This document shows, piece after piece, positions 1,958-54,450 of a stretch of 64,000 nucleotides of DNA. The position numbers and the translations under genes were made by a program. The notes beneath the pieces are model-generated. The model was not told where the DNA came from, did not search any database, and saw nothing but the letters and a program-made list of their open reading frames with translations. The stretch lies in the NCBI GenBank assembly GCA_045630985.1, contig JAZQTW010000015.1, forward strand, positions 10,706 to 74,705, read 5' to 3'. Source of the stretch: Alphaproteobacteria bacterium. Its GTDB lineage: Bacteria; Pseudomonadota; Alphaproteobacteria; RF32; CAG-239. The number at the start of each line of letters is the position of its first letter. Position 1 is the stretch's first letter.

Positions 1958-2881
1958 ATGGAAAAAATCTATAATTCAATTTCTGAGCTTGTTGGGCATA
2001 CTCCTTTAGTTAGATTGGGGCGTTTGACTACAAAACTGCGTTTGAATGCCGAGATTTTGGTTAAATGTGAAATGTATAACCCCATGTTTTCTGTTAAAGA
2101 TAGAGTTGCTTTGTCTATGATTGAAAAAGCAGAAAAAAATGGAATATCTAGAGATACTATATTTGTTGAGGCAACTTCTGGTAATACGGGTATTGGGTTA
2201 GCAGGAGTTTGTGCAGCAAAAGGGTATAAACTTATTATTGTTATGCCTGAAAATATGTCTAAGGAAAGGATAGATTTAATTAAACATTTTGGAGCAGAAG
2301 TAATTTTAACGCCAGCCGAAGATGGTATGAATGGAGCTATTCATAAAGCAGAACTTCTGAAAGAACGAAATCCTAATGTTGTTATGTTGAAGCAATTTGA
2401 AAATGATGCAAATGTTAATGCTCATAAAATGGGGACAGCAATGGAGATTTTGGAAGATACAGGTGGTGATTTTGATGTTTTTGTTGCAGGGGTTGGTACA
2501 AGTGGAACAATAACAGGAGTTTCTTCTGTGTTAAAAACATATAATCAAGATTTGTATGTGGTTGCTGTTGAACCAGAGAGTAGTGCTGTTTTAAGTGGAA
2601 AAGAAAAAGGTTGTCATAAAATACAAGGAATTGGAGCGGGTTTTGTGCCTAATTTTTATGATAACAATTTAGTTGATGAGATTATAAGAATAAGTGATGA
2701 AGAGGCTATTGATACAGCAAAATTGGTTGCTAAAACAGAGGGCTTGGCGATTGGTATTTCTGGTGGTGCTGCAGTTTGTGGTGCTATTAAGATAGCTCAA
2801 AGAGAAGACTTTACAAATAAAAGATTAGTTGTTATTTTGCCAGATAGTGTTGAGAGATATTTATCAACGGGTGTTTTTTAG
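1958..2881 (+). CDS. cysK: cysteine synthase A (O-acetylserine sulfhydrylase), PLP-dependent
   Basis: ELVGHTPLVRL..., PLP-lysine motif SVKDRVA, TSGNTGIGLA, GxGTSGTITG glycine loop; starts at stop of gmk (ATG overlapping TAG). Confidence 0.85.
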   Translation: MEKIYNSISELVGHTPLVRLGRLTTKLRLNAEILVKCEMYNPMFSVKDRVALSMIEKAEKNGISRDTIFVEATSGNTGIGLAGVCAAKGYKLIIVMPENMSKERIDLIKHFGAEVILTPAEDGMNGAIHKAELLKERNPNVVMLKQFENDANVNAHKMGTAMEILEDTGGDFDVFVAGVGTSGTITGVSSVLKTYNQDLYVVAVEPESSAVLSGKEKGCHKIQGIGAGFVPNFYDNNLVDEIIRISDEEAIDTAKLVAKTEGLAIGISGGAAVCGAIKIAQREDFTNKRLVVILPDSVERYLSTGVF

Positions 2882-2893
2882 GATTTTAGAACT

Positions 2894-4000
2894 ATGATGA
2901 AACCAAATTCAATTTTAGGCTCTTATTTGATAAAGCAAACTGTTTTGAGTTTTTTGAGTGTGTTGATGGTGATTTGTGCAATTATCATGATGTTTGATAT
3001 GATAGAGATTTTGCGCAAAACCTCTGGTAGATATGATGTTAGTATTTGGTTTTTGATTCAGTATGTTATAGCAAAATTGCCTGAAACAGTTGATAAAATT
3101 GTTCCTTTTGTGGTTATGATTTCTACAATGATTACATTTTGGCGCTTAAGTAAAATGAATGAATTTGTTATTATCAGAGCTGCAGGTGTTTCTATATGGG
3201 GAGTTCTAACACCTGTGTTGTTAGCTGTTTTTTCAATAGGATTGTTTTGGATTATGGTGGTTAATCCTTTTTCTTCAAGAATGTATGAATTGCGTGAAAC
3301 ATTATCTTATAGACTTAAAACAAATAATCCTGATGCGTTTTTGTTTTCTAATAAGGGGTTGTGGATTAGAGAAAGTTTGAAACCCGATGTTGTTTCCGTA
3401 ATAAATACAGGTGCTATAAATCTTAAAGATGATGTTTTGTGGTTGCAGGATGTTAGCATTATAGAAGTAGATGAAAAGATGCAAGTTACAAGAAGAGTAG
3501 AGGCGTTTATTGGTACATTAGGTAATGATGAATTAGATTTAAGGGATGTTAGAGTTTATAAATCTGGTCAAAAAGCTGAAATTATTAATAATATGAAATA
3601 TCCAACAAAGATGAGCTTGCAACGTATTAAGGATAACTTTGTTGATCCTGAAGCTATATCCTTTTGGAATTTGCCTGATACAATAGAATTTTATAAAGCG
3701 TCAGGGTTTTCTGTTCAAAGATATTTGATGCGATATATTAGCTTGATTGCTTTACCTTTTATGCTTATGGCAATGGTTTTGGTTGCAGGCATTTTCTCTT
3801 TGAAACCAAGTCAAAGACAAGGTGGTGTGTTAACTATGATAGTTTTTGGTATAGCAACTGGTTTTACTGTATACTTTACCTCGCAAGTTATATCAGCTTT
3901 TGGTGTAAATGCGTATATCCCAATATGGTTTGCGGTTTGGGCTCCAACTATTGTGGTTGCATCTATTAGTGTTTCTTACTATCTAAATAAAGAAGAATAG
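2894..4000 (+). CDS. LptF/LptG (YjgP/YjgQ) family LPS-export permease
   Basis: ~360 aa, N-terminal TM cluster, central periplasmic region, C-terminal TM cluster; family-typical N-terminus (YLxKQ...). Confidence 0.7.
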   Translation: MMKPNSILGSYLIKQTVLSFLSVLMVICAIIMMFDMIEILRKTSGRYDVSIWFLIQYVIAKLPETVDKIVPFVVMISTMITFWRLSKMNEFVIIRAAGVSIWGVLTPVLLAVFSIGLFWIMVVNPFSSRMYELRETLSYRLKTNNPDAFLFSNKGLWIRESLKPDVVSVINTGAINLKDDVLWLQDVSIIEVDEKMQVTRRVEAFIGTLGNDELDLRDVRVYKSGQKAEIINNMKYPTKMSLQRIKDNFVDPEAISFWNLPDTIEFYKASGFSVQRYLMRYISLIALPFMLMAMVLVAGIFSLKPSQRQGGVLTMIVFGIATGFTVYFTSQVISAFGVNAYIPIWFAVWAPTIVVASISVSYYLNKEE

Positions 4001-4435
4001 TTAAAATATAGAGATTATTTCTGCAGGTATTTTGGTTGGACGCATAGTTTCTAAGCTTAGAAATACTAAGGTTACTTCTATTTCAGATAACACGGTATCG
4101 CCACGATATAGTTTTTGTTCCATTTTTAATGAAACACCTTTTAATTCTGTTACTTTGCATGTTATGTTTAGTGCATCATCTAATTTTGCTGGTGATTTAT
4201 AGCTAATATGGCATTCTCTAACAACAAATCCGGCGCCTATATTTTTTAGCATGTTTTCTTGGCTAAATCCTAGATGACGAAGAAATTCTGTTCTAGCTCT
4301 TTCAGCAAATTTTAGATAGTTTGCATAATATACAATTCCTCCGGCATCTGTATCTTCATAGTAAACACGAATCGGAAAAGAAAATGTTTTATCATCAAAT
4401 AATTTACCTGTTATTGTATTTGTTTCATATGTCAT
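4001..4435 (-). CDS. ybgC: YbgC/FadM-family acyl-CoA thioesterase (tol-pal associated)
   Basis: hotdog-fold thioesterase N-terminus (RVYYEDTDAGGIVYYANYLKFAERARTEFL); position directly downstream of ruvB as in many alphaproteobacteria. Confidence 0.75.
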   Translation of the reverse strand: MTYETNTITGKLFDDKTFSFPIRVYYEDTDAGGIVYYANYLKFAERARTEFLRHLGFSQENMLKNIGAGFVVRECHISYKSPAKLDDALNITCKVTELKGVSLKMEQKLYRGDTVLSEIEVTLVFLSLETMRPTKIPAEIISIF

Positions 4436-4438
4436 AGC

Positions 4439-5494
4439 TTAAAATCCTAAATCTTCCATAAAACTAAATTGGTTGTTATCATTTTTAAATTTACTAACTC
4501 CAAGATATTTACATCCTTGTTCTGATAAAACACGTCCACGCGGTGTTCTTTGTAAAAATCCTAGTTTTAGTAAATATGGTTCAATTACTTCTTCTATTGT
4601 ATCTCGTTCTTCTGAAAGAGCTGCTGCCAGTGTATCAGCTCCAACAGGACCACCACCATAGTTTTTAGCGATACAATTTAGGTAACGGCGGTCAAATTCA
4701 TCTAAACCATAAGGGTCTACATCTAATAGGCTTAGTGCTTTATCTGCTATTGTAGAATCTATTTGTACGTTACCTGCAACAGCACCGAAGTCCCTTACTC
4801 TTTTTAATAATCTTCCTGCAATACGAGGGGTTCCGCGTGAACGCTTAGCAATTTCCATTGCGCCATCTTGAGATATTGGCATGTTTAATAAATTTGCACC
4901 GCGTAGAACTATTTTTTGTAAGTCTTCATGATTATAAAAATCCATGCGTAGAGGAATACCAAAACGTTCTCTTAGAGGTGTTGAAACAAGACCTGAGCGA
5001 GTTGTTGCACCAACAAGAGTAAAAGGTTGTAAATCTATTTTTACTGAACGAGCAGAAGGTCCTTCACCGATAATTATATCTAATTGAAAGTCTTCCATGG
5101 CAGAATATAAAACTTCTTCTATGGCAGGGTTTAAGCGGTGTATTTCATCTATAAATAAAACATCTTTTGCTTCAAGATTTGTTAATATGGCGGCCAAATC
5201 TCCAGATTTGGTAATCATTGGGGCAGAGGTTGCTTTAAATCCTACACCTAACTCTTTTGAGATAATGTTTGATAGAGTTGTTTTACCTAATCCTGGAGGG
5301 CCATATAAAAGTACGTGGTCTAAAACTTCTCCTCTACTTTTAGCAGATTCTATAAATACTTTTAGATTTTGGCATACTTTATCTTGGCCAACAAATTCAT
5401 CAAGACTAGATGGTCTGAGATTTATAGCAATAGGAGAGTTATTTTCATCTGTTGATAGTATTTGTGAGCTAACTATTCTTTCTTTATTTTCCAT
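4439..5494 (-). CDS. ruvB: Holliday junction branch-migration helicase RuvB
   Basis: [12 protein letters not shown], Walker [10 protein letters not shown], Walker [10 protein letters not shown], sensor and winged-helix regions conserved. Confidence 0.95.
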
Positions 5495-5502
5495 TTTTCC
5501 TC

Positions 5503-6162
5503 CTATTGATTAAATTCTTTAAGAGATAATCTTATCAATGTACCTAAATCTGCTGTTGGATTTTTTAGGCAAATTTCTGAGGCAACTCGGTATGCGTCTG
5601 TTCTTTGATATCCGAGATTAGTTAAAGCAGAAGTTACATCTTCTGTTTTTTGATAAATTTCATCATCTGTATCTGAAACTGTATTTTGAGGAGTAGGTTG
5701 TTTGGTTGGTGTTTTATCTTCTATATCAGATAATTCTGCTCCAGACATATATTCTATAGGGATTGTTACAATTTTATCTTTTAATTCTGTAACAAGTCTT
5801 GCGGCTAGTTTTGGACCAACACCAGATGCTCTTAAAAATGAACTTTTATCTTGTGCTGATACTGCTTGAGATAGTTGTGCAGGAGATAAAACACTTAATA
5901 TACTTAAACAAACTTTTCCGCCAACACCTTGTATTTTTGTGAGAGTGTTGAACCATTCTTTTTCCCATGCATTTTGAAAACCAAAAAGGGTGATACTATC
6001 TTCTTTTATAACAGTTTCTATTAATAAGGAAGAATATTCTCCTTGTTTTAGTTTAGAAAGTGAGCGAGAAGACATGTAAACAAGATAGCCAACGCCATTA
6101 ACATCTATTATTGCACAGTCTTCGCCAATGTTATCTATAATTCCTTTTAGTTTTGCAATCAT
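5503..6162 (-). CDS. ruvA: Holliday junction DNA-binding protein RuvA
   Basis: [29 protein letters not shown]-terminus, helix-hairpin-helix [10 protein letters not shown]; immediately upstream of ruvB. Confidence 0.9.
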
Positions 6163-6304
6163 AATACAATCCTTTTGTTGTTATGGTAAGAGTTTATAGG
6201 TGTTTGCTTTAGTCTTCAAGCGTTTTTTTATTTAGCACCCCTTTTTTTAGCCAAATTAAGGGTTATATCCGAAAGGTGTTTAATATAGCTAAAGGATTAA
6301 AGCG

Positions 6305-7450
6305 ATGATAAATTTAAAAACAGCGTTATTTGTTGCGTGTAGTGTATTGAGTGTTTCTAATGCGTATGCAAAAGATTTGGGTTTTTCTTATCAAGATTTT
6401 AAAAACAGTTTGAATAAAAAATATGGTTTTGATTATAGCATTGATGCTTCTGTTTTAGGGCAAAGAACTAGCCCTAGTGGAAAAAACAATGCTGTTCAAA
6501 CGTATATCTATCCATCATTTACGTGGACACTATCTGATGGTTCTAGAGGAATAGGCGTGTTGAATTTTGCTTATACCGTTATAAGATATGGAAATCATAA
6601 TGCTAATGATTTGGCAAACAATTCTGGTTTTGTTACACCTATAAATGATTACCCAGATAATGAAAATGAATTTAATGAATTGTATTATACGTATCAATTT
6701 GGAGGAAATTGGAATTGGTTAACATTAGCGCTTGGTCAGTTTCCTCTTTATAATTTTGATGGTACAGATTATGATGCAAATCAGCAGGTGAATTTTATAA
6801 ATGAATCTTTTTCGCAAAATGCTTCTGAAACATATACACAAGCAGGTCTTGGTGCATATGTTCAAATTACACCTAATGAGGAGTGGAGCTTTGCTTTTGG
6901 TGGACAAGATGGTACAAATATAGATGCTCAAAGTATAAGGTTTAATCATCTAAATAAGGAGCATTATACAACGTTTGGATATGTTGCATATACTCCAATA
7001 ATAAAAGGTTTGGGAGAGGCAGAAATCTCTGTTTTGGTCTATAATCAACCTTGGGTAAAAGAGCAACAGGAAACGACTAATGGTTGGTCGTTAAATTTAT
7101 CTCAAAATATTGGTGAAAAATGGTCAGTTTTTGCAAGAATTAACGAAACAAGCGGAAGTGTTGCGGAGATAAGGCAATCATGGGTGTTTGGTGGTGTTTG
7201 GAATAATCCTTTAGGGCGCAATAATTTAGACCAAATTGGTTTGGCGTATGCATATAATAAATTAGATGAAAAAGCTGTAGGAGAAAAGCTTAATCATAAA
7301 GCAGAGCAAGTTATTGAAGCATATTGGGCTTGGGGTGTTGGTGATATGCTAACGATTACTCCTGATGTACAGTTATATATAAATCCTGCGCTTAATCAGA
7401 AATCTGATTATGGGTTTGCAACAGGGGTTAGAGCAACAGTGTTTTTCTAG
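6305..7450 (+). CDS. outer-membrane beta-barrel protein / putative porin with signal peptide
   Basis: Sec signal peptide (…SVSNAYA|KD), alternating amphipathic beta-strand pattern, C-terminal aromatic residue (…RATVFF) typical of OMPs. Confidence 0.55.
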   Translation: MINLKTALFVACSVLSVSNAYAKDLGFSYQDFKNSLNKKYGFDYSIDASVLGQRTSPSGKNNAVQTYIYPSFTWTLSDGSRGIGVLNFAYTVIRYGNHNANDLANNSGFVTPINDYPDNENEFNELYYTYQFGGNWNWLTLALGQFPLYNFDGTDYDANQQVNFINESFSQNASETYTQAGLGAYVQITPNEEWSFAFGGQDGTNIDAQSIRFNHLNKEHYTTFGYVAYTPIIKGLGEAEISVLVYNQPWVKEQQETTNGWSLNLSQNIGEKWSVFARINETSGSVAEIRQSWVFGGVWNNPLGRNNLDQIGLAYAYNKLDEKAVGEKLNHKAEQVIEAYWAWGVGDMLTITPDVQLYINPALNQKSDYGFATGVRATVFF

Positions 7451-43966: not shown

Positions 43967-44043
43967 TGGTGTACCCGGCGAGGTTCGAACTCGCAACCTT
44001 TGGCGTCGGAGGCCAAAACTCTATCCAGTTGAGCTACGGGTAC
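43967..44043 (-). tRNA. tRNA-Arg (anticodon CCG)
   Basis: reverse complement GTACCCG-TA-GCTCAACTGGATAGAGT-T-TTGGC-CTCCGAC-GCCAA-AGGTT-GCGAG-TTCGAAC-CTCGC-CGGGTAC-A-CCA; perfect 7-bp acceptor stem. Confidence 0.85.
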
Positions 44044-44186
44044 TTTTTATTCTAAGAATTATGTTTTATATTACGAAAATCGTAAAAAATCTAGTTTTTT
44101 TTAATGTTTTTTAGAAGATTTTGCTTGACTTATTAGTATTATGTTTGTATGTATGAGCAAAAGTTTTTTGAGTAAAGGATAAGAAA

Positions 44187-44471
44187 ATGGCTAAGAAATG
44201 TGAAATTTCAGGCACTGGCGTTATGAGCGGTAACAACGTTAGCCACGCTAACAACAGAACTCGTCGTCGCTTTTTGCCTAACTTACAAGTAGTTTCTCTT
44301 TTGAGTGAAGCTTTGGGTAAAGTATATAAATTGAGAATCTGCACAAAGACTCTTCGTTCTATTGAACACAAAGGTGGTCTTGATGCTTATTTGATGAATA
44401 CTCCAGATAGCAAACTTTCTGAAGAAGCTAAAAAAATTAAAAAAGTTGTTGCTGGTAAAGTTTCAGCATAA
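44187..44471 (+). CDS. rpmB: 50S ribosomal protein L28
   Basis: MAKKCEISGTGVMSGNNVSHANNRTRRRFLPNLQ matches L28 N-terminal signature. Confidence 0.85.
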   Translation: MAKKCEISGTGVMSGNNVSHANNRTRRRFLPNLQVVSLLSEALGKVYKLRICTKTLRSIEHKGGLDAYLMNTPDSKLSEEAKKIKKVVAGKVSA

Positions 44472-44494
44472 TTGCATTTTAGATGTAAGTTTAT

Positions 44495-44522
44495 AGGTCG
44501 CTTTAAGGCGACCTTTTTTTGT
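44495..44522 (+). terminator. intrinsic terminator of rpmB
   Basis: AGGTCGC-tttaag-GCGACCT + TTTTTTTG. Confidence 0.75.
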
Positions 44523-44587
44523 GATGAAAAACAATATAAAATATACTTGCTTTTTGGCTTACTAAGATATATAAGCTTGGTAGATAT

Positions 44588-44664
44588 CGGAATGTAGTTC
44601 AGCCTGGTAGAGCGCTTGCATGGGGTGCAAGAAGTCGGAGGTTCGAATCCTCTCATTCCGACCA
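44588..44664 (+). tRNA. tRNA-Pro (anticodon GGG)
   Basis: CGGAATG acceptor, AGCCTGGTAGAGC D-arm, anticodon loop ATGGGGT (G37), GGAGGTTCGAATCCTCT T-arm, CATTCCG-A-CCA. Confidence 0.85.
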
Positions 44665-45770: not shown

Positions 45771-47021
45771 TTATCCTTCTTCGGTTTTACTTTCCAATAT
45801 CTTAAAACCATTTGATATTTCCAGTAATGTAGTCAGCGAAAAATCAGATGTTTTTAATTTTCTTATATCGGAGTAAAGCTTCTCATAATCTCTCTGTACC
45901 GTAGAAATCTTTTTTGAAGTTAGTGAACATTTTTCTACAATCTCGCCCAATTGTGCTTCATAAACCTCTCTATCCTGTGCTATTGCTTTTATCCCAACCT
46001 CATGAGATCTTACCACCATATCATCCCACAGTGGCAAAAATTCCGTACGAAGTATAGAATCCCACTTTTTACAATACCTGTCCTGATAAACATCTTTTAA
46101 TCTATCGCACATCAACCTCTGTATTGAAGTTGACATTAAAGACAAGGTGTGTTGGATACTATTCAAAGCATTAGACATATTAACGGCCAATTTTTCTACA
46201 GCTTCAGCAATAGGAACGGTTAGCTCCAAAACATTATCTGTATAAAATACTGGGAATATAGGATTATGAATATACAACTCATGATGACCTGTTTTGGGTT
46301 TTATCCGACCCGTATCAAAAATTTCTGAATCATCTACTCTTTTAATATTAAAAAAATAGAAATCTTCACAATCATAATCCTCACTCAAAATTTTAGCAAT
46401 TTTTGAATTTGCTTCCTCGTGTGTATCAAAAATAAAACAAGCAAAATAACTACCATAAGGACCATGCATACAATGATTGTTTTTATCAATCATATTATGT
46501 AACAGACTATAAGGATCATAAAGATTTTGTGCAGTAATTCCCATGCTCTTCATGTAGTCTTTTAAGCGGTAGCTACAACACTCTCGTCCTCTGCAATAGT
46601 GATATTTTAAAACCTTGGGTTGTCCGTATATACCATAATAGATTTGCTCATTAAGTTTGAAAAATGAAGGAAATTCTTCAAAAGATTCAACCATACATTT
46701 ATCATGCTCAACAAAACACTCATTAAGAATATCAAAATAAATGTCTTTCCAGATAATTTTCTCTCTCAAATCTTTCATGGTGACACGAACATATTCACTC
46801 TTGCTCTTCTCACCATAATTAACTTGTTTAGGCAACTTATATACTCTGAATTTATATACCATGTTATAGCCATGATTATTTTGCATAAGTATTGGCTGCT
46901 TGAGATTTTTATACCACAGTTTACCAAAAACAAAATGGTACATATTCCACCCATCTTTTTTGCATAAAGAATTTATGAATCTGTACATAAATTCCGGATT
47001 AAGATATTCTTCTCTAACCAT
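45771..47021 (-). CDS. hypothetical protein, 416 aa, Cys/His/Tyr-rich N-half, no recognised domain
   Basis: long ORF; no Shine-Dalgarno; conserved ~100-nt upstream leader shared with the 338-aa gene at 53434..54450. Confidence 0.5.
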   Translation of the reverse strand: MVREEYLNPEFMYRFINSLCKKDGWNMYHFVFGKLWYKNLKQPILMQNNHGYNMVYKFRVYKLPKQVNYGEKSKSEYVRVTMKDLREKIIWKDIYFDILNECFVEHDKCMVESFEEFPSFFKLNEQIYYGIYGQPKVLKYHYCRGRECCSYRLKDYMKSMGITAQNLYDPYSLLHNMIDKNNHCMHGPYGSYFACFIFDTHEEANSKIAKILSEDYDCEDFYFFNIKRVDDSEIFDTGRIKPKTGHHELYIHNPIFPVFYTDNVLELTVPIAEAVEKLAVNMSNALNSIQHTLSLMSTSIQRLMCDRLKDVYQDRYCKKWDSILRTEFLPLWDDMVVRSHEVGIKAIAQDREVYEAQLGEIVEKCSLTSKKISTVQRDYEKLYSDIRKLKTSDFSLTTLLEISNGFKILESKTEEG

Positions 47022-47379: not shown

Positions 47380-47426
47380 TTGTAAAAAAAAAAGAGGAAG
47401 AATTTTCTTCCTCTTTTTTTATTGTT
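47380..47426. terminator. bidirectional intrinsic terminator
   Basis: A10-GAGGAAGA-att-TTCTTCCTC-T9. Confidence 0.75.
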
Positions 47427-47428
47427 TT

Positions 47429-48064
47429 TTAGAAACCTATTACTTTTTTAGCTGCTTTTAAGTAGTTGGTATTTGGCATTTTATCTATACCTAAAGCTTC
47501 AACAGCGGTTTTCATCTTTGTGTAGTCTTCACTTTCACAACAAGCTGTTTCTACTAAAGCGCCATTCATCCAAACATAAGCATATTCGCAAATTACATCA
47601 TTTACAGAAAATCCATAGCGTTTCTTTTCTACTGTAACTAGAGCTAATTGATGATGGTTGCGTGCAAGCTCACAGAACTCTTCAAAAGAATATTCGTCTT
47701 TATCTAAGTCTAACTCTACTTTGAGGTGAGAAAGAATTGTTGCTAACTCTTCTTTTTTTACAGGGAAATTGAATTTTCCTCTAGGTTGGAAAATTTCATA
47801 TCCTTCTGGTGTTTCGCCAACTTTTGTTTTGATATCTAATAAATCATCGCGCACTTTTACGTTTGCTTCATCAGTCTTTTTAGATAAAATATATGTTTCT
47901 GCAGGCATTACACGTGCTTTATATAATACTGCTTTGCAGTTCCACATATTTTCTTTAACACCTTCTATAATATCTTTACCAAAAACTCTAAATTCGGCGC
48001 GAGGTGTTAATTTGGCAGCTTCGTCTGCTGATTGAGCTACATTTTTTGCAAAAACGTCTGTCAT
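47429..48064 (-). CDS. hypothetical protein, 211 aa (possibly a divergent CYTH-like domain), last gene of patatin-CYTH operon
   Basis: 24-nt gap to upstream CYTH gene; weak CYTH-like strand pattern (EFRVFGKD… VKVRDD… DIKTKVGE…) but lacks ExExK. Confidence 0.5.
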   Translation of the reverse strand: MTDVFAKNVAQSADEAAKLTPRAEFRVFGKDIIEGVKENMWNCKAVLYKARVMPAETYILSKKTDEANVKVRDDLLDIKTKVGETPEGYEIFQPRGKFNFPVKKEELATILSHLKVELDLDKDEYSFEEFCELARNHHQLALVTVEKKRYGFSVNDVICEYAYVWMNGALVETACCESEDYTKMKTAVEALGIDKMPNTNYLKAAKKVIGF

Positions 48065-48088
48065 TTTGTTTCTCCAATTATTTGATGA

Positions 48089-48559
48089 CTAGTTATTCCA
48101 TGTTGTATATGGATTTTTTACTAAGTTAGAGTTGAAGTAACGAGGGTCTCCAGATACTTCTTCGCCAATCCATTCTGGTTTTTCAAATTTTTGGTCTTCG
48201 CTTTGAAGCTCAACTTCTGCAACAATCAAACCTTTGTTAACTCCTAAAAACTCATCAATTTCCCAAACCAATCCGTCTAGAGCAATTTTGTAACGTATTT
48301 TTTCTACAATTGGTTGTTCTGCAAGGTTTGTAAGCATTTCAACACATTCATTGTGTGGAATTTCATATTCAAATTCCATACGAGTTATACCAACTGTTGG
48401 GCCTTTAATTGTCATGAAAGCTTTATCATTTATGGTGCGAATACGAACAGTACGTTCTTTTGCACTATTAAGGTATCCTTGACGATAATGTGTTCCTTGT
48501 GCTAAAGAACGCCAGCTGTCATCAATTACTAAAAATTTACGTTCAATTTCTTTTGACAT
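48089..48559 (-). CDS. CYTH-domain protein (triphosphate tunnel metalloenzyme; class IV adenylyl cyclase / inorganic triphosphatase family)
   Basis: N-terminal EIERKFLV (ExExK signature), acidic strand motifs EFEYEI, EIDEF, VAEVEL. Confidence 0.75.
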   Translation of the reverse strand: MSKEIERKFLVIDDSWRSLAQGTHYRQGYLNSAKERTVRIRTINDKAFMTIKGPTVGITRMEFEYEIPHNECVEMLTNLAEQPIVEKIRYKIALDGLVWEIDEFLGVNKGLIVAEVELQSEDQKFEKPEWIGEEVSGDPRYFNSNLVKNPYTTWNN

Positions 48560-48625
48560 TGTCTTCTCCTTGTAAATAAAACACGCTATTGTTTATATCA
48601 CACTGGGAGGAATAAGCAATATTTT

Positions 48626-49486
48626 TTATTGATTTGTGATTTGTGCTAAAAATTGTTTAACTTTATCTAGCATGTTTGTAGCATCTTGTCGACCTAGTTC
48701 GTACATTTCTTTAACTATATCAAGGTTTGGTTCCATTTTTGAAATATTTATAAATTTACTTGGGCGAATTAAGAGGATTTCTTCTTTTTGAGCTAATTTT
48801 TCTATTTCTTCTATCTCGTTATTGTACATTGTGTGGCGATTAAGTATTGTTTTGATGAAGTTTGGGTATTTTCTATAGATTAAATTTGCTAGCCACTTTG
48901 CCTTAAATGGCTTTTTGCGATATCCTTCAGGACGAGTTGCTATTACTATATTTTTTGTAAAACCTAAGGTTTTTGCGCCTTGTAGAGGTATACTATCGCA
49001 AATGCCTCCGTCTAAATATTTGTTGTTATTTAAATTTACTATTTGAGAGACAAATGGCATAGATGCTGATGCTCGCAAATAATCAATTTCTTTAAACAAG
49101 TCTTTACAGTGGATATATTCGGGCTTACCAGTTTCTATGTTAGATACAACTACGTAAAACTTGGTATTAGAATCCATAAATGTTTTGTTATCAAATGGGT
49201 CTAATTTTTCTGGTAAATCATGGTAGCAAAATTTTGTATCTACAATATTTCCGGTTAAGAGTAGAGAGCGAAAGCTCATAAAACGATAGTCATTTCCGTA
49301 TTTCATGTTATAACGGATGCTACGTTCTTTTTGTTTTGCCACATATGAACAACCATGTATTGCGCCTGCAGAAACGCCAATTACTCCGTCAAAGGTTATT
49401 CCGTTTTCTAAAAAAACATCTAGTACACCTGCGGTGTAGATACCTCTTTTTGCTCCACCTTCTAAAACTAATCCTGTTTTTTGCAT
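48626..49486 (-). CDS. patatin-like phospholipase
   Basis: oxyanion-hole LVLEGGAKRG, nucleophile elbow GVSAG, catalytic DGG (YLDGGICDS). Confidence 0.85.
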   Translation of the reverse strand: MQKTGLVLEGGAKRGIYTAGVLDVFLENGITFDGVIGVSAGAIHGCSYVAKQKERSIRYNMKYGNDYRFMSFRSLLLTGNIVDTKFCYHDLPEKLDPFDNKTFMDSNTKFYVVVSNIETGKPEYIHCKDLFKEIDYLRASASMPFVSQIVNLNNNKYLDGGICDSIPLQGAKTLGFTKNIVIATRPEGYRKKPFKAKWLANLIYRKYPNFIKTILNRHTMYNNEIEEIEKLAQKEEILLIRPSKFINISKMEPNLDIVKEMYELGRQDATNMLDKVKQFLAQITNQ

Positions 49487-49818: not shown

Positions 49819-51690
49819 ATGGATGGAGCTTTGTTAAAAGATATTTTTGAGAGGAGTTATGCTAATGAGTTAGTAGAATGTATTCGCTCAAATGGTAATG
49901 TAGATGATTTTATAAAAAATTTAGAAGAAAAACAAAGTGATGAACAACAATCTAAAATATATCAGTTTGTGGAGTATTATAAAAAGGTTTTAGAATATCC
50001 AAGTGATATTTCTAAAGAAGAAATATTGAAATCTGGTCTAAGTGAACAATATATTGAACGACAAATTATGGAAAGTAAATTTCCGGGTGAAGCTTTTAGG
50101 TCTATTAGAAGAATGTATGAGCAATTAGATAGACCGGCAGCTCCAATGGTTGCATTTAGGAGAGAGTATGCGGGGGGAGATATTGTTGAAAAATTAAAAC
50201 AAAAAGGTTTTGATGTTGCTACAGAAGATGATGAGAGGGCTGTTAATACAGATGTTTTTGTTGTAGATAAGCAATCTAGGACAATAAATGCTCCATTTTT
50301 AGCTCCGGATGAAGCATTGAAGGCTAATATAGCTATGATAGATGCTATTTATGAATGTGGATCTGAAGCATATTTATCTAGTCCAAGAACTAGAGAAACA
50401 TTTGCTATTGCAACTCATGAGCCTTTGTCTCAAGAAGAAGGAGTTGGATTAGATTTAGAAATAATAGCTTCTCATTATTCAAAAGATAATTATGAGAGGG
50501 TTATGAATAATTTTTATCAAGAATGTATAGAGGGAGAAGAACCGTACAAGATATTATGCAATTTTATAGATCACATAAAACCAAGGGATTTAGACCTACA
50601 TGATAAAATTATCAAAGAAGGAAAAGAAAGGTTTCCACGTTATTTATCCAGTGATTTATTAAAAGAAATAGAAGAAGAAGCTAGAAAAATTTTAGTAGAG
50701 CATAAAGAGGAGTTTATGCCTTATGTAAAATATGTGTATCAATATATGATGAAAGAAGAAGCATTTGAAAAAGGGATTGATTCGCATATTCCAGATAAGG
50801 AAAATATAGAAATGCTAGAACAAAATAAACCGATAACATCAGTTTTTCATGGAGGGAAAAAAGGTGGATTACCATATTCAATATTTGCTCGTAGGAAGGA
50901 AAAAAATATGATTCATACTTATGCGGCATCTATGATGGATTATGAAGTATATTCGGGAGGGAGTACTTCAAATAATCCTGTTGGGTATGCGGTTGCAGCT
51001 TCCTGTCATAATGCAAGGTCATTTGCGATATCTTTTGGTTTTGTTTATGAATATAAGTCTAGAGGAGAAAATCAGGAGATGTTGCTCTTGGATAGTGGTA
51101 GTAAACCATTTGATGGGGGAAAGTTTGTTGCCCCATACTCTGATGAAACAGCTGTGTATCCGCATCAAAATAAATTAAAAAAAATATATATTGCAACAAA
51201 GAGAGATGGGGTTTTTAGAGTTCTTCCATTAGAGGTAGATGAAGAAGGTAAAGTTAAAGATGCAAGATGGCGAGAATTTGTTGAATTGCATAACCCGGTG
51301 GATGATACATTATCTGGATTTATGGTTGATAGACAGAATAATATGATTGCGGAATATGATAAGTTAGGCAAAGAAAAGATGATGGATAGACGCTTAAGCA
51401 TTGATATTGGTGCAAAAAATATTTCTTTACCAATAAATTCGGAAAATGAAAGTGTAGAAAAAGTTGAAAGTTTATCTGCTGTATCTTCTGTATCAGTAGC
51501 AGAGATGTCTGAGAAGGAGAAGTATGTTTTCTTTAAAGCGCTTAGTAGAGGGGAGAATATGTTTCTTAATAAACATGAAGAAGCACAACAATTGGTTAAA
51601 AATGAGGAACAAACTAAAGTTACTTCTTTACAAAAAACGAAAGATTGTCAAAGAGTGATAGTTAATAGTAGAGATAAGGATAGAGATTAA
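49819..51690 (+). CDS. hypothetical protein, 623 aa, acidic, no recognised domain (candidate secreted effector)
   Basis: AAGGGAG RBS 7 nt upstream; long ORF with coding-like composition. Confidence 0.55.
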   Translation: MDGALLKDIFERSYANELVECIRSNGNVDDFIKNLEEKQSDEQQSKIYQFVEYYKKVLEYPSDISKEEILKSGLSEQYIERQIMESKFPGEAFRSIRRMYEQLDRPAAPMVAFRREYAGGDIVEKLKQKGFDVATEDDERAVNTDVFVVDKQSRTINAPFLAPDEALKANIAMIDAIYECGSEAYLSSPRTRETFAIATHEPLSQEEGVGLDLEIIASHYSKDNYERVMNNFYQECIEGEEPYKILCNFIDHIKPRDLDLHDKIIKEGKERFPRYLSSDLLKEIEEEARKILVEHKEEFMPYVKYVYQYMMKEEAFEKGIDSHIPDKENIEMLEQNKPITSVFHGGKKGGLPYSIFARRKEKNMIHTYAASMMDYEVYSGGSTSNNPVGYAVAASCHNARSFAISFGFVYEYKSRGENQEMLLLDSGSKPFDGGKFVAPYSDETAVYPHQNKLKKIYIATKRDGVFRVLPLEVDEEGKVKDARWREFVELHNPVDDTLSGFMVDRQNNMIAEYDKLGKEKMMDRRLSIDIGAKNISLPINSENESVEKVESLSAVSSVSVAEMSEKEKYVFFKALSRGENMFLNKHEEAQQLVKNEEQTKVTSLQKTKDCQRVIVNSRDKDRD

Positions 51691-51797: not shown

Positions 51798-52349
51798 ATG
51801 GTAAATGTAGCGCCTATAATTGCGGCGACAGCGGCAATGAATGCAGCATCAGCGGCTTTGAATGCAAAAAGAGTTTTAAATAAAGGTAAAAGAGTTCCAA
51901 CTGAAGAAGAAATAAAGAAAAACCAAGAGTATAAGGATAATGAAAAGGCTTTGAGTGAGGATTATGCAAAAGCTTATAAGAGAGCAAGGGCTAGTGTTGA
52001 TGAGAGTAAGACTGTTGTTGAATCACAAGATAGAATGGAAAAAGTTACTGCATATTATGATGATAAAGGAAATCTTTTAATACGTGAAACAGCATTGACT
52101 TTTATGATTGATGGAGAAACAACAACAGAAATTTATTCTCCTTACTCAGGTAAAAAGTTGTTTAGTAATAGAGTTTATCATAGTCCTGAAGAGGATATTG
52201 AGCATATTACTCATTATGATAGTGAAGGTAATGATGATACTCAGATGTATGCTAAAAAGAAGAAGCTTGAAGCTAAAAGAGATAAAGAAAAAGCAAAGAA
52301 GAGACTTAGAAGGATGAAACTTAATAGAGTCTTTCATAAAGGGAGATAA
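51798..52349 (+). CDS. hypothetical lysine-rich protein, 183 aa
   Basis: AAGGGAGG RBS 6 nt upstream; Ala-rich N-terminus (MVNVAPIIAATAAMNAASAAL), basic C-terminus. Confidence 0.5.
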   Translation: MVNVAPIIAATAAMNAASAALNAKRVLNKGKRVPTEEEIKKNQEYKDNEKALSEDYAKAYKRARASVDESKTVVESQDRMEKVTAYYDDKGNLLIRETALTFMIDGETTTEIYSPYSGKKLFSNRVYHSPEEDIEHITHYDSEGNDDTQMYAKKKKLEAKRDKEKAKKRLRRMKLNRVFHKGR

Positions 52350-52417: not shown

Positions 52418-52867
52418 TTATCGCTTTCCATAAACAATGATGTATTGATTATCACCTTTGTCAGCTAAAAGATATCCTACTTTATATCCTAGCTTGAAAG
52501 CGTTTTCACCATGATACCCATAGTTAGTAATCTTCCAACTTGTTGGGGTGTTTATGTATGTATGTACATTAAAACCTATGGAATTAAATTCGTAATATGT
52601 GTTTTTTGAATTTATTCCATAACTTCCGTTTGGAGTTATGTACATATCATGATAATCACCATCCTCTAGATAATTGCTATCGGAATTTTGCATAAATGCA
52701 TATACAAAATCCGCATCTTTTACAGCCTCTACTGAGGGTTGAGCATCACAGTATTCCTTTGTAGAATAGCATTCGCCATCTAAAAGGATGTTACCATCGC
52801 ATACTATTTGTGCGAAGGTAGTTGTACTAGTGAGAACTAGTAGCAAAGAAATAAAAATCTGTTTCAT
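52418..52867 (-). CDS. small secreted protein with signal peptide, Tyr/Asn/Gly-rich
   Basis: MKQIFISLLLVLTSTTTFA|QI signal peptide; 4 Cys near N-terminus. Confidence 0.5.
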   Translation of the reverse strand: MKQIFISLLLVLTSTTTFAQIVCDGNILLDGECYSTKEYCDAQPSVEAVKDADFVYAFMQNSDSNYLEDGDYHDMYITPNGSYGINSKNTYYEFNSIGFNVHTYINTPTSWKITNYGYHGENAFKLGYKVGYLLADKGDNQYIIVYGKR

Positions 52868-53433: not shown

Positions 53434-54450
53434 CTAAAGTTCTTCCCATTTGATTTTTTTAGGGAACTGCTTGAACCAGTGTTCTTCGGTTATTTCAGGC
53501 ATTTTCAGTTCCAATGTTTGATAAACCATCTTTACCTTGTCAACCCTGTTTACCGGAACGATTCCAGAAGCATTTTTAATGCCGGATTTTTTTAGCAATG
53601 CAACTCGTTCTGATGTATCTGCACGGTGAGTATACCTGAATTCATGTCGCATAGTGATATCCAGACCTTCCAATCGCATATACTCCATGACATCGTATAT
53701 ATACATAGGCAGATAATCTTTTACTTGGCCGGATTTTGGAATTTGTGTGTAACGTCCTATTTGTCCTTTATCAATTTCATATAAAGGATAACGCCAGTAT
53801 TCATTATCATTACCATGATCGATCATAGGTTCTTTAGGTAGATCGTCCACACAAACCGTATATTCTCCCTTTGGAAGTCGGTCAATTTCAGCTCCAAACA
53901 GCAACTCATGGCTTGTGCGTTTCTCAAGTGAATAGTTCTTACAATTCCATAGTTTTGGCAGAGCAAGCATGTGATGAGGGTATGGGTATACCTGAAAATC
54001 TATAAAATAAAGAATGCGGTAATCTGTGATGAACATCATCTTCGGTCTTTCTGCGAATTTGTCGTCATTAGGATAAACTAGCAACACGTTGTTTACACAG
54101 GTTGCTATGATAAATTCTTTTACGTAATCTATCATCACCCTAATACTTTCGTTGTATTTGTCCTTAGAAAAATACGGCGTCCATGGGTTGTCAGGAAGAA
54201 GTGATTTCACATTTTCATAAGAAAAGTCAATCACCCAAACAGGACCGCCGGTTCTATGGCTTCCCCAAGTGCTGCTGTTGACAACAGTAAGGATAATTTC
54301 TTCCCATTCCTTGTTTCTCAATACTGCAAAATGGTGCTTGACCGGTTCGTTAAGCCAAGAGATGAACTCTTGTTCGGTGTCAAAGCAAGCTCGGGCTTCT
54401 TCAACACTGTCGATAATAATTTTCCTGATTTCTTCTTCTGTTTTTTTCAT
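53434..54450 (-). CDS. hypothetical protein, 338 aa, no recognised domain
   Basis: long ORF, no SD, upstream leader conserved with the 416-aa gene. Confidence 0.5.
   Translation of the reverse strand: MKKTEEEIRKIIIDSVEEARACFDTEQEFISWLNEPVKHHFAVLRNKEWEEIILTVVNSSTWGSHRTGGPVWVIDFSYENVKSLLPDNPWTPYFSKDKYNESIRVMIDYVKEFIIATCVNNVLLVYPNDDKFAERPKMMFITDYRILYFIDFQVYPYPHHMLALPKLWNCKNYSLEKRTSHELLFGAEIDRLPKGEYTVCVDDLPKEPMIDHGNDNEYWRYPLYEIDKGQIGRYTQIPKSGQVKDYLPMYIYDVMEYMRLEGLDITMRHEFRYTHRADTSERVALLKKSGIKNASGIVPVNRVDKVKMVYQTLELKMPEITEEHWFKQFPKKIKWEEL

Follow-up and report, generated by a model that had tools for sequence, protein, structure and literature searches.

The closest characterised relative of the CYTH protein described here is NeuTTM (NE1496) of Nitrosomonas europaea, a triphosphate tunnel metalloenzyme (TTM) which is described as a specific inorganic triphosphatase (PMC3440374). 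Vogt et al. placed NeuTTM together with CthTTM in cluster 2 of a sequence similarity network (SSN), apart from the class IV adenylate cyclases; other TTM enzymes are RNA, thiamine, and nucleoside triphosphatases, and the physiological role of the bacterial CYTH triphosphatases and of inorganic triphosphate is still unclear (PMC8233210). The papers on NeuTTM consulted here describe no tunnel-protein partner of the kind reported below. Here we analyzed a 64,000-nt stretch of the genome of an alphaproteobacterium (GCA_045630985.1, contig JAZQTW010000015.1, positions 10,706–74,705), referred to as the window, in which a CYTH gene is located between a gene for a patatin-like phospholipase and a gene for a 211-residue protein, named p211 in the following. 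We found that the conserved unit at this locus is the pair of CYTH and p211, and that p211 itself is predicted to be a second, divergent tunnel-fold protein.

Conservation of the CYTH-p211 pair

The three genes and the elements next to them are located as follows:

48626–49486, minus strand: patatin-like phospholipase, 286 amino acids (open reading frame (ORF) translation and Pfam)
48592–48619, minus strand: promoter-like element in the 66-nt gap (predicted, consensus match)
48089–48559, minus strand: CYTH protein/TTM, 156 amino acids (ORF translation and Pfam)
47429–48064, minus strand: p211, 211 amino acids (ORF and predicted fold)
47387–47420, no strand assigned: terminator-like hairpin with a 15-bp stem and A/T runs on both sides, directly after the p211 stop codon

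The gaps measure 66 nt between patatin and CYTH and 24 nt between CYTH and p211, and the hairpin is the only terminator-like hairpin near the block. ORF and hairpin mapping thus bore out the initial annotation, which had described three minus-strand genes with gaps of these lengths and a single terminator at the end. Comparison with relatives gave dN/dS values of 0.03–0.10 for the patatin, CYTH, and p211 genes, indicating purifying selection, and all three are therefore considered as real genes under constraint. The G+C content of the window is about 32%, and the nearest database relatives of its lineage are mostly gut or faecal metagenome-assembled genomes (MAGs).

The p211 family comprises 1,787 members at E ≤ 0.001 in a set of 5.8 billion proteins (671 representatives in a library clustered at 50%), and when one genome of each GTDB species was scanned, a close p211 relative was seen in 240 species. 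We examined 86 p211 loci (designated by L numbers), 6 of which were obtained by exact-protein look-ups and 80 from the GTDB species scan. A CYTH gene of the NeuTTM type is located directly upstream of p211 in 54 loci and, with the same orientation, at a distance of up to 6 kb upstream in another 19, that is, in 73 of the 78 loci that could be evaluated; eight loci were too short to judge, and five had no CYTH gene despite at least 4.5 kb of upstream sequence. The pair was found in Alphaproteobacteria, Sutterellaceae, Desulfovibrio, Holophagaceae, Gemmatimonadota, Chloroflexi, and on one Citrobacter plasmid.

A patatin gene was present beside the pair in a single one of the 86 loci (L007, an alphaproteobacterial MAG whose p211 is 91% identical to that of the window), and one further relative with the three-gene block, L092, was found through a search with the patatin. 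The three-gene arrangement is kept in at least three genomes, with about 84% DNA identity. Exact-sequence look-ups with the p211 and the patatin of the window matched no contig, and a literature search for a CYTH-patatin pairing yielded nothing relevant. The initial annotation had viewed the three genes as one system, but their co-occurrence was confined to the close relatives L007 and L092, and 84 other loci had the pair with no patatin beside it. The conserved unit is the CYTH-p211 pair rather than the three-gene block, and the block consists of two separate units that adjoin only in one genus-level lineage of low-GC Alphaproteobacteria. In more distant alphaproteobacterial MAGs, the pair has a place of its own, with a cold-shock or small gene on one side and a glycosyltransferase gene on the other. 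In L093 (11429–12077), p211 is split into ORFs of 147 and 88 amino acids, either by a frameshift or by an assembly error; the sister scaffold L092 carries an intact 211-amino acid gene.

A promoter-like element upstream of CYTH

The predicted promoter-like element in the gap between patatin and CYTH consists of a -35 region (TTGCTT, 48619–48614), a 16-nt spacer, and an extended -10 region (TGaTATAAA, hexamer at 48597–48592), and is followed downstream by a ribosome-binding site (AAGGAG, 48571–48566). The motif AAAAATATTGCT[T/A]ATT around the -35 region is shared with the patatin-less upstream contexts of L004 and L010. DNA homology between the window and L004 is limited to positions 48628–47415, which extend from the patatin stop codon to the hairpin and contain the 66-nt spacer, CYTH, p211, and the hairpin. 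These homology limits and the conserved promoter-like motif make the pair look like a self-contained cassette of 1.2 kb, and the window lineage has kept only this putative promoter-CYTH-p211-terminator unit.

Immediately upstream of CYTH-p211 in L004, a metagenome variant, a block at 2361–6944 contains genes for a reverse transcriptase (RVT_1), an RNase H, a cell-wall hydrolase, and a tyrosine integrase. In L005 and L006, whose context is the same in all other respects, this block is missing, suggesting a hotspot of integration beside the pair.

The CYTH protein is predicted to be a triphosphatase

The 156-amino acid protein matched the Pfam family CYTH (PF01928) with an E-value of 4.6e-20 and 72.6 bits (cut-off 23.2 bits). 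It starts with MSKEIERKF and contains the motifs ExExK, RxR, Lys (TIKG), VEKxRY, and ExE (AEVEL), so that the ExExK signature noted initially was confirmed; the tunnel residues ExExK, RxR, Lys, and ExE are invariant in 12 orthologues. The only PDB sequence matches at E ≤ 0.01 were the NeuTTM entries 2FBL and 3TYP (E = 5e-18, residues 3–146).

Class IV adenylate cyclases are distinguished by an HF motif four residues before ExExK (HFxxxxExExK), by loss of the central Arg of the RxR strand in favor of a small residue, and by ExA replacing ExE on strand β8 (PMC8233210). None of these three features was found in the CYTH protein of the window: merely three residues precede ExExK, leaving no HF motif, and the sequences VRIRT and AEVEL keep both arginines and both glutamates. 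On these grounds, a phosphohydrolase and not a cyclase is predicted, and the class IV adenylyl cyclase activity considered in the initial annotation agrees neither with these motifs nor with the grouping of the protein with NeuTTM. The tryptophan motif WxRxR of thiamine triphosphatases was also not found, the corresponding sequence being TVRIR. Judged from its sequence, the CYTH protein is most probably an inorganic triphosphatase of the NeuTTM type. It is similar to NeuTTM and CthTTM, both small stand-alone bacterial triphosphatases, in size, domain, and conserved tunnel motifs, but genes of the window type differ in being nearly always accompanied by a gene for another, divergent tunnel protein, and they lie inside a transporter/regulator cluster in most lineages.

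p211 is predicted to have a divergent triphosphate-tunnel fold

p211 gave no match in Pfam (E ≤ 0.01), NCBIfam, PADLOC, or PHROG and no sequence match in the PDB. Its similarity to CYTH proteins was below significance with sequence methods (BLASTP E = 0.12 in the expected register; hhalign E = 0.23 against the CYTH profile), and the kinship was therefore settled by fold comparison. An AlphaFold2 model based on 26 homologues (pLDDT 91.7, pTM 0.85) shows nine strands and several helices. When this model was compared with the PDB by Foldseek, all 30 best matches were CYTH/TTM proteins, with E-values from 9e-6 to 3e-4 and TM-scores of 0.37–0.58. They include the YjbK-type structures 2GFG (BH2851) and 3SY3 (GBAA_1210), E. 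coli YgiF, AtTTM3, SaTTM, human and mouse thiamine triphosphatase, and a class IV cyclase. According to the model, p211 is a divergent eight-stranded triphosphate-tunnel fold of the CYTH/TTM superfamily, and the early guess that the 211-amino acid protein is CYTH-like was thus supported by the fold comparison.

In place of the canonical tunnel residues, p211 contains a variant set composed of R22-x-E24-x-R26, K70-x-R72, D77-x-K79, K147-x-R149, E160, and E177-x-E179. An RxExR motif (R22-A-E24-F-R26) is present where ExExK stands in CYTH proteins, whereas KxR is retained, as is E177-x-E179 within the close clade. The initial annotation had described the protein as lacking the catalytic motif, which is correct for canonical ExExK but overlooks the variant tunnel residues (RxExR, KxR) that are kept. 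Among 109 aligned family members, with identities as low as about 30%, R22, E24, R26, E56, Y58, N68, K70, R72, D77, K79, E90, K97, F100, P101, K147, R149, E160, E177, N198, and Y201 are 85–99% conserved, and position 92 is aromatic (Trp in 85% of the members, Phe in the window protein). Most of the conserved residues are spaced i, i+2 on predicted strands, a pattern suggestive of a charged tunnel lining, and the modeled tunnel appears to be rich in basic residues (Arg and Lys), with fewer acidic ones.

The window p211 is 67–70% identical to its homologs in Acidobacteriota, Gemmatimonadota, Chloroflexi, and Spirochaetes, and p211 is both the most constant and the most conserved component of the gene clusters described below. 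Where other genes come between CYTH and p211 (Holophagaceae, Gemmatimonadota, Rhodocyclales, and similar), the CYTH protein is 48–58% identical to that of the window; in loci with adjacent genes, e.g., in Chloroflexi, both CYTH and p211 are about 70% identical to their window counterparts. The transporter encoded in the clusters is 35–42% identical to a Sutterella reference.

Among described proteins, p211 is comparable to Arabidopsis TTM1 and TTM2, which likewise have no canonical ExExK, and to the YjbK-type proteins 2GFG and 3SY3, which belong to its best structural matches. From these ExExK-less and YjbK-type members of the superfamily it differs by the missing Pfam CYTH match, its own RxExR signature, and an N-terminal extension of about 20 residues, and from typical CYTH proteins by its far stronger conservation across phyla. 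Some automatic annotations in UniRef name p211 generically as "CYTH domain-containing protein." A literature search revealed no paper on the p211 family or on a TTM-transporter operon or cluster.

Gene neighborhoods of the pair in other bacteria

In loci of high G+C content, neighboring families were located by tblastn, since simple ORF calling gave shadow ORFs. A DASS transporter was found in 49 loci and a LysR-type regulator in 38; Na/Pi cotransporters, phosphate-selective porins (Porin_O_P), SulP-STAS transporters with a cyclic-nucleotide-binding domain (SulP-STAS-cNMP), and DUF4010 proteins also recur near the pair.

In Sutterellaceae, Mesosutterella, Turicimonas, and Parasutterella, the gene order is LysR, CYTH, p211, and a DASS/SLC13 anion symporter (TIGR00785 at cut-off), and a Na/Pi cotransporter and a 480-amino acid protein of no assigned family are often present too. 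Five loci come from bins labelled Hallella faecis, Bacteroidaceae, Parabacteroides distasonis, Oscillospiraceae, and Acutalibacteraceae (L023, L027, L029, L030, and L034). Since the level of identity of their p211 and CYTH proteins is that of Sutterellaceae copies and the Sutterellaceae-type order LysR-DASS(-NaPi)-CYTH-p211 is seen in four of them, they are probably mis-binned contigs rather than true occurrences in Bacteroidota or Firmicutes.

In Desulfovibrio, the loci contain genes for two pyrophosphatases with apparent N-terminal signal peptides, one of family II (Mn-dependent; 376 bits, cut-off 283 bits) and one resembling family I, and for two secreted proteins of about 319 and 280 amino acids without a family match. 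Exported pyrophosphatases are unusual; the Desulfovibrio coordinates are 3205–4236 and 10294–11043 in L024 and 4697–5731 and 12209–12964 in L001. The secreted 319-residue neighbor ("FFDTP...LVRV") was considered as a periplasmic CYTH protein, but this idea was dropped in view of an hhalign E-value of 0.16 and no support from Pfam or the PDB. Searches with the 280-residue protein gave no match.

In Holophagaceae, Gemmatimonadota, and Rhodocyclales, the DASS transporter gene lies between CYTH and p211, sometimes together with a gene for a DUF4010 membrane protein, and these loci are flanked by genes for Porin_O_P, a SulP-STAS-cNMP-binding transporter, or a chemoreceptor. In loci of the Holophagaceae type, a second, distant p211 paralogue (23–32% identity) is located directly upstream of CYTH, and the conserved p211 follows about 4 kb downstream (L064 1153–1734; also L067, L068, L071–L073, and L076). 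Directly after p211, loci of Gemmatimonadota, Rhodocyclales, and Burkholderiales carry the gene of a SulP-STAS transporter with a C-terminal cyclic-nucleotide-binding domain (L039 6667–8883; also L047, L048, L055, L057, L065, L077, and L084). This domain is the sole hint at cyclic nucleotides in the neighborhoods of the p211 family.

Loci of the spirochaete/Treponemataceae type (L082 2039–8828; L070 and L081) contain p211 without CYTH within reach. Here, p211 is followed by TctC-TctB-TctA, and a cytoplasmic DHH-DHHA2 phosphoesterase, a Na/Pi-PhoU cotransporter, and LysR are encoded as well, which suggests that the hydrolase and the transporter around p211 are interchangeable.

A complete cassette of genes for LysR, CYTH, p211, an SLC13 permease, and a 486-amino acid hypothetical protein was found on a mobilizable 326-kb plasmid of Citrobacter freundii, near IS26 and tra genes (L094 7241–12760, corresponding to 224150–229669 of NZ_CP026058.1). 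The p211 of this plasmid, labelled "hypothetical protein" in RefSeq, is 67.8% identical to the window protein. Within PLSDB the cassette was found only on the Citrobacter plasmid, and it was present in none of 5,426 E. coli genomes. The alphaproteobacterial p211 copies are 82–84% identical to copies from ruminant-gut MAGs labelled Burkholderiaceae and thus closer than the distance between the phyla predicts. This unexpected closeness and the plasmid copy point to horizontal spread. IMG/VR yielded no relatives, and no viral copies were found. Both the pairing of two tunnel proteins and its phosphate-type neighborhood appear to be undescribed.

The patatin is a separate unit of the YjjU type

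The patatin matched the Pfam families Patatin (E = 3.6e-25) and DUF6363 (E = 3.7e-17), and these two domains fill the length of the protein. The oxyanion loop (GGAKRG) and the GVSAG and DGG motifs are all readable in the translation, in agreement with the intact Ser-Asp dyad and oxyanion loop reported initially. The window protein aligns over its full length (residues 3–282) with E. coli K-12 YjjU (29% identity, E = 1e-30). YjjU also has the architecture Patatin plus DUF6363 and shares the oxyanion loop, GxSxG, and DGG; it is longer, with 357 residues compared to 286. By sequence, the window protein is thus assigned as a YjjU-type patatin-like phospholipase, i.e., a member of a group of common bacterial lipid hydrolases with an uncertain physiological role, rather than the defense or signaling lipase envisaged in the initial annotation.

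None of the patatins named in NCBIfam has the protein as an equivalog; it scored 52 bits with the model of RssA (cut-off 272 bits), and NF041079, the model of the CBASS (cyclic-oligonucleotide-based antiphage signaling system) cGAMP-activated lipase CapV, gave 27.8 bits (cut-off 200 bits). Similarity to the phospholipase effector models of PADLOC was weak and generic (E = 8e-8). Neighboring genes were scanned with Pfam, NCBIfam, and PADLOC over 44.9–51.7 kb and with Pfam over 52–58 kb, and no CD-NTase or other cyclase was found among them. The block thus shares a patatin-fold lipase with CapV-containing CBASS, but has no CD-NTase, a CapV score below cut-off, a CYTH protein that is not a cyclase by its motifs, and a co-occurrence restricted to one lineage. 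The proposal of a nucleotide-activated lipase of the CBASS type does not agree with these results. A secreted toxin of the ExoU/VipD type was also rejected: the protein has 286 residues spanned by its two domains, and its only PDB sequence match at E ≤ 0.01 was PlpD (5fqu). Having neither a large multi-domain layout nor a match to ExoU or VipD, it does not fit the host-activated toxins (ExoU/VipD/Pat1-like) suggested at first.

Orthologues of the patatin with 75 and 67% identity are located elsewhere (L088; L089–L091), with no CYTH nearby; their neighbors are two genes without assigned function, an MsbA-like ABC exporter gene, and pgpA. The patatin is a neighbor of the pair by rearrangement in one genus-level lineage.

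A possible module for uptake and hydrolysis of condensed phosphate

The explanation that we favor, with moderate confidence, is that the block combines a lipase unit and a cassette for two tunnel enzymes, and that the pair belongs to a module for uptake and hydrolysis of condensed inorganic phosphate, i.e., pyrophosphate (PPi), triphosphate, or short polyphosphate. It is based on the recurrence of phosphoanhydride hydrolases, Na/Pi-PhoU cotransporters, phosphate porins, interchangeable polyanion transporters (SLC13/DASS, SulP, TctABC), and LysR in the clusters. The CYTH protein would cleave tripolyphosphate (PPPi) to PPi and phosphate (Pi), as NeuTTM does, and p211 might bind or hydrolyse a related species, either PPi or a chain of other or greater length. 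The archaeal SaTTM is product-inhibited by PPi, and Arabidopsis TTM1 and TTM2 (SSN cluster 7) hydrolyse PPi although they lack ExExK (PMC8233210). Taken together with the predicted basic tunnel of p211, these properties make a role of p211 on PPi plausible; its action could relieve product inhibition of the triphosphatase of the kind reported for SaTTM. In the window lineage, where merely the two cytoplasmic enzymes are retained, both would presumably act on internally generated tri- or polyphosphate.

In yeast and plants, a tunnel-domain polyphosphate polymerase (VTC4) and SLC13-type phosphate transporters (Pho87/90/91) are known. The bacterial clusters resemble these systems in that tunnel-fold proteins and SLC13/DASS transporters both take part in (poly)phosphate handling, and differ from them in having no SPX domains and in consisting of separate small polypeptides; the homology, as far as it is shown, is at the superfamily level.

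Several points weigh against a condensed-phosphate module. p211 has no significant match to the CYTH profile, and it may be non-catalytic, since the first Glu of ExExK is missing. The transporter families are best known for di- and tricarboxylates or sulfate, and the substrate could be an organic polyanion. The 64 kb of the window contain no homolog of the transporter, LysR, pyrophosphatase, DHH, or Na/Pi genes of the clusters, and the context seen in other phyla may fail to transfer to a lineage without these partners. As the gap between patatin and CYTH has no terminator, read-through from patatin and thus co-transcription is possible. Many of the loci stem from MAG contigs, some of which are non-independent (L002/L003; L004–L006) and some probably mis-binned. 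Finally, we found neither biochemistry nor a paper on p211 or the cluster. The data presented above establish what the genes are, the fold of p211, the synteny, and the limits of the cassette, and substrates, catalysis by p211, and any contact between CYTH and p211 are what we infer.

Alternative explanations

The alternative that survives best, unlikely as we regard it, is that p211 is not an enzyme but a tunnel-fold subunit that senses or sequesters polyphosphate or another polyanion and regulates CYTH, the transporter, or, via the inducer level, LysR. The Arg in place of the first Glu of ExExK and the basic-rich tunnel are consistent with such a function, the high identity of p211 across phyla (67–70% versus 48–58% for CYTH in the separated loci) would fit several interaction surfaces, and in L070, L081, and L082, which have no CYTH nearby, p211 is still accompanied by transporter and LysR genes. 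However, E24, E56, D77, E90, E160, and E177(-x-E179) stay invariant, which would be enough for metal binding, and the PPi hydrolysis by the ExExK-less AtTTM1/2 (PMC8233210) argues that loss of this motif is compatible with catalysis.

A more far-reaching form of the condensed-phosphate module would make p211 an undescribed RxExR tunnel subfamily and the constant core of a horizontally mobile cross-phylum module that also comprises a phosphoanhydride hydrolase, a polyanion transporter, and LysR, maybe with a new bacterial tunnel-enzyme activity such as pyro- or tetraphosphatase, VTC4-like polyphosphate transfer, or transporter gating. The chances of this extended version are, in our view, rather low.

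We also doubt that the substrate of the pair is organic, be it a triphosphate (of a nucleoside or of thiamine, or an alarmone-like compound) or a polyanion brought in from outside. The range of substrates of TTM enzymes (PMC8233210) would allow this, as would the carboxylates and sulfate for which DASS, TctABC, and SulP are best known and the cyclic-nucleotide-binding domain of one transporter variant. On the other hand, the reported specificity of NeuTTM for inorganic triphosphate (PMC3440374), the recurrence of pyrophosphatases, Na/Pi-PhoU cotransporters, and phosphate porins in the clusters, and the missing WxRxR motif argue for an inorganic substrate.

Similarly doubtful is a lineage-specific operon with a recruited patatin, in which expression of phospholipid breakdown is coupled to that of (poly)phosphate hydrolysis, e.g., for lipid remodeling under phosphate limitation. 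Lipid remodeling during phosphate starvation is well known in Alphaproteobacteria, and the repeated occurrence of the arrangement in at least three genomes, the purifying selection on all three genes, and the terminator-free 66-nt gap would be in accord with it. Yet no role in phosphate scavenging is known for lipases of the YjjU type, only one narrow lineage shows the adjacency, the promoter-like element of the gap is also present in patatin-less loci, and the window contains no Pho-type regulator or other phosphate gene.

Very improbable, finally, is a single signaling, defense, or toxin system in which CYTH makes a messenger, p211 senses or regulates, and the patatin is the activated lipase: the genes follow one another on the same strand, with short gaps and a single terminator, their arrangement is kept in L007 and L092, and the patatin weakly resembles PADLOC effectors, but it lies beside the pair in just one of the 86 surveyed loci (plus L092) and has orthologues elsewhere, CYTH lacks HF and retains both the central Arg and the complete ExE, the CBASS lipase model scored far below its cut-off with no CD-NTase or other defense protein among the neighbors, and the pair has its own promoter-like element and no viral copies.

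All three outcomes that the initial annotation had named as refuting its proposal were observed, namely co-occurrence confined to close relatives, grouping of CYTH with NeuTTM, and a patatin of the YjjU type. The results speak against a new lipase-based signaling or defense system, which would have been a notable find. They leave a tunnel-fold protein, uncharacterised and conserved to an unusual degree, that accompanies an inorganic triphosphatase of known type, in most lineages together with transporters, porins, and pyrophosphatases. The conserved context leads to a testable hypothesis on uptake and breakdown of PPi and PPPi in cultivable species, namely Desulfovibrio desulfuricans, Parasutterella excrementihominis, and Turicimonas muris YL45. 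More speculatively, it might have a bearing on the handling of polyphosphate food additives by gut bacteria.

The tRNA-Pro site and its flanking DNA

The block is located near a tRNA gene and is surrounded by several ORFs without relatives in the family databases scanned (ORFans):

44588–44664, plus strand: tRNA-Pro(GGG), adjoining rpmB and tRNA-Arg(CCG)
45771–47021, minus strand: 416-amino acid ORFan, no Pfam, PHROG, or PADLOC match
49819–51690, plus strand: 623-amino acid ORFan, no Pfam, PHROG, or PADLOC match
51798–52349, plus strand: 183-amino acid ORFan, no Pfam or PHROG match
52418–52867, minus strand: 149-amino acid ORFan, no Pfam or PHROG match
53434–54450, minus strand: 338-amino acid ORFan, no Pfam or PHROG match

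A further flanking ORF of 105 amino acids, scanned against Pfam only, belonged to no Pfam family, and a GNAT acetyltransferase is the sole flanking protein with one. In the flanks, no integrase, phage, or defense gene was detected. A phage origin was rejected, as p211 and the tested flanking ORFs had no PHROG matches and IMG/VR no relatives, and a defense island was rejected, as PADLOC gave only the weak generic similarity of the patatin. The site is variable, but there is no sign that it is a defense island or that the three genes reside on a mobile element.

The genes for tRNA-Arg(CCG), rpmB, and tRNA-Pro(GGG) at 43967–44664 have the same arrangement in L092, a related species with about 80–85% DNA identity in the shared parts, and the three-gene block is conserved there at the same tRNA-Pro/rpmB site. 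The designation of the region as accessory therefore applies to the flanking DNA, which varies between related genomes, but not to the block itself, which is kept in L092. The two genomes differ between tRNA-Pro and p211 (44.84–47.38 kb, with the GNAT acetyltransferase and the 416-amino acid ORFan) and between the patatin and a major facilitator superfamily (MFS) transporter (49.59–54.59 kb, with the ORFans of 623, 183, 149, 105, and 338 amino acids). The ORFan-bearing flanks of the window are not at the same positions in L092 and are partly present, in another order, in L007.

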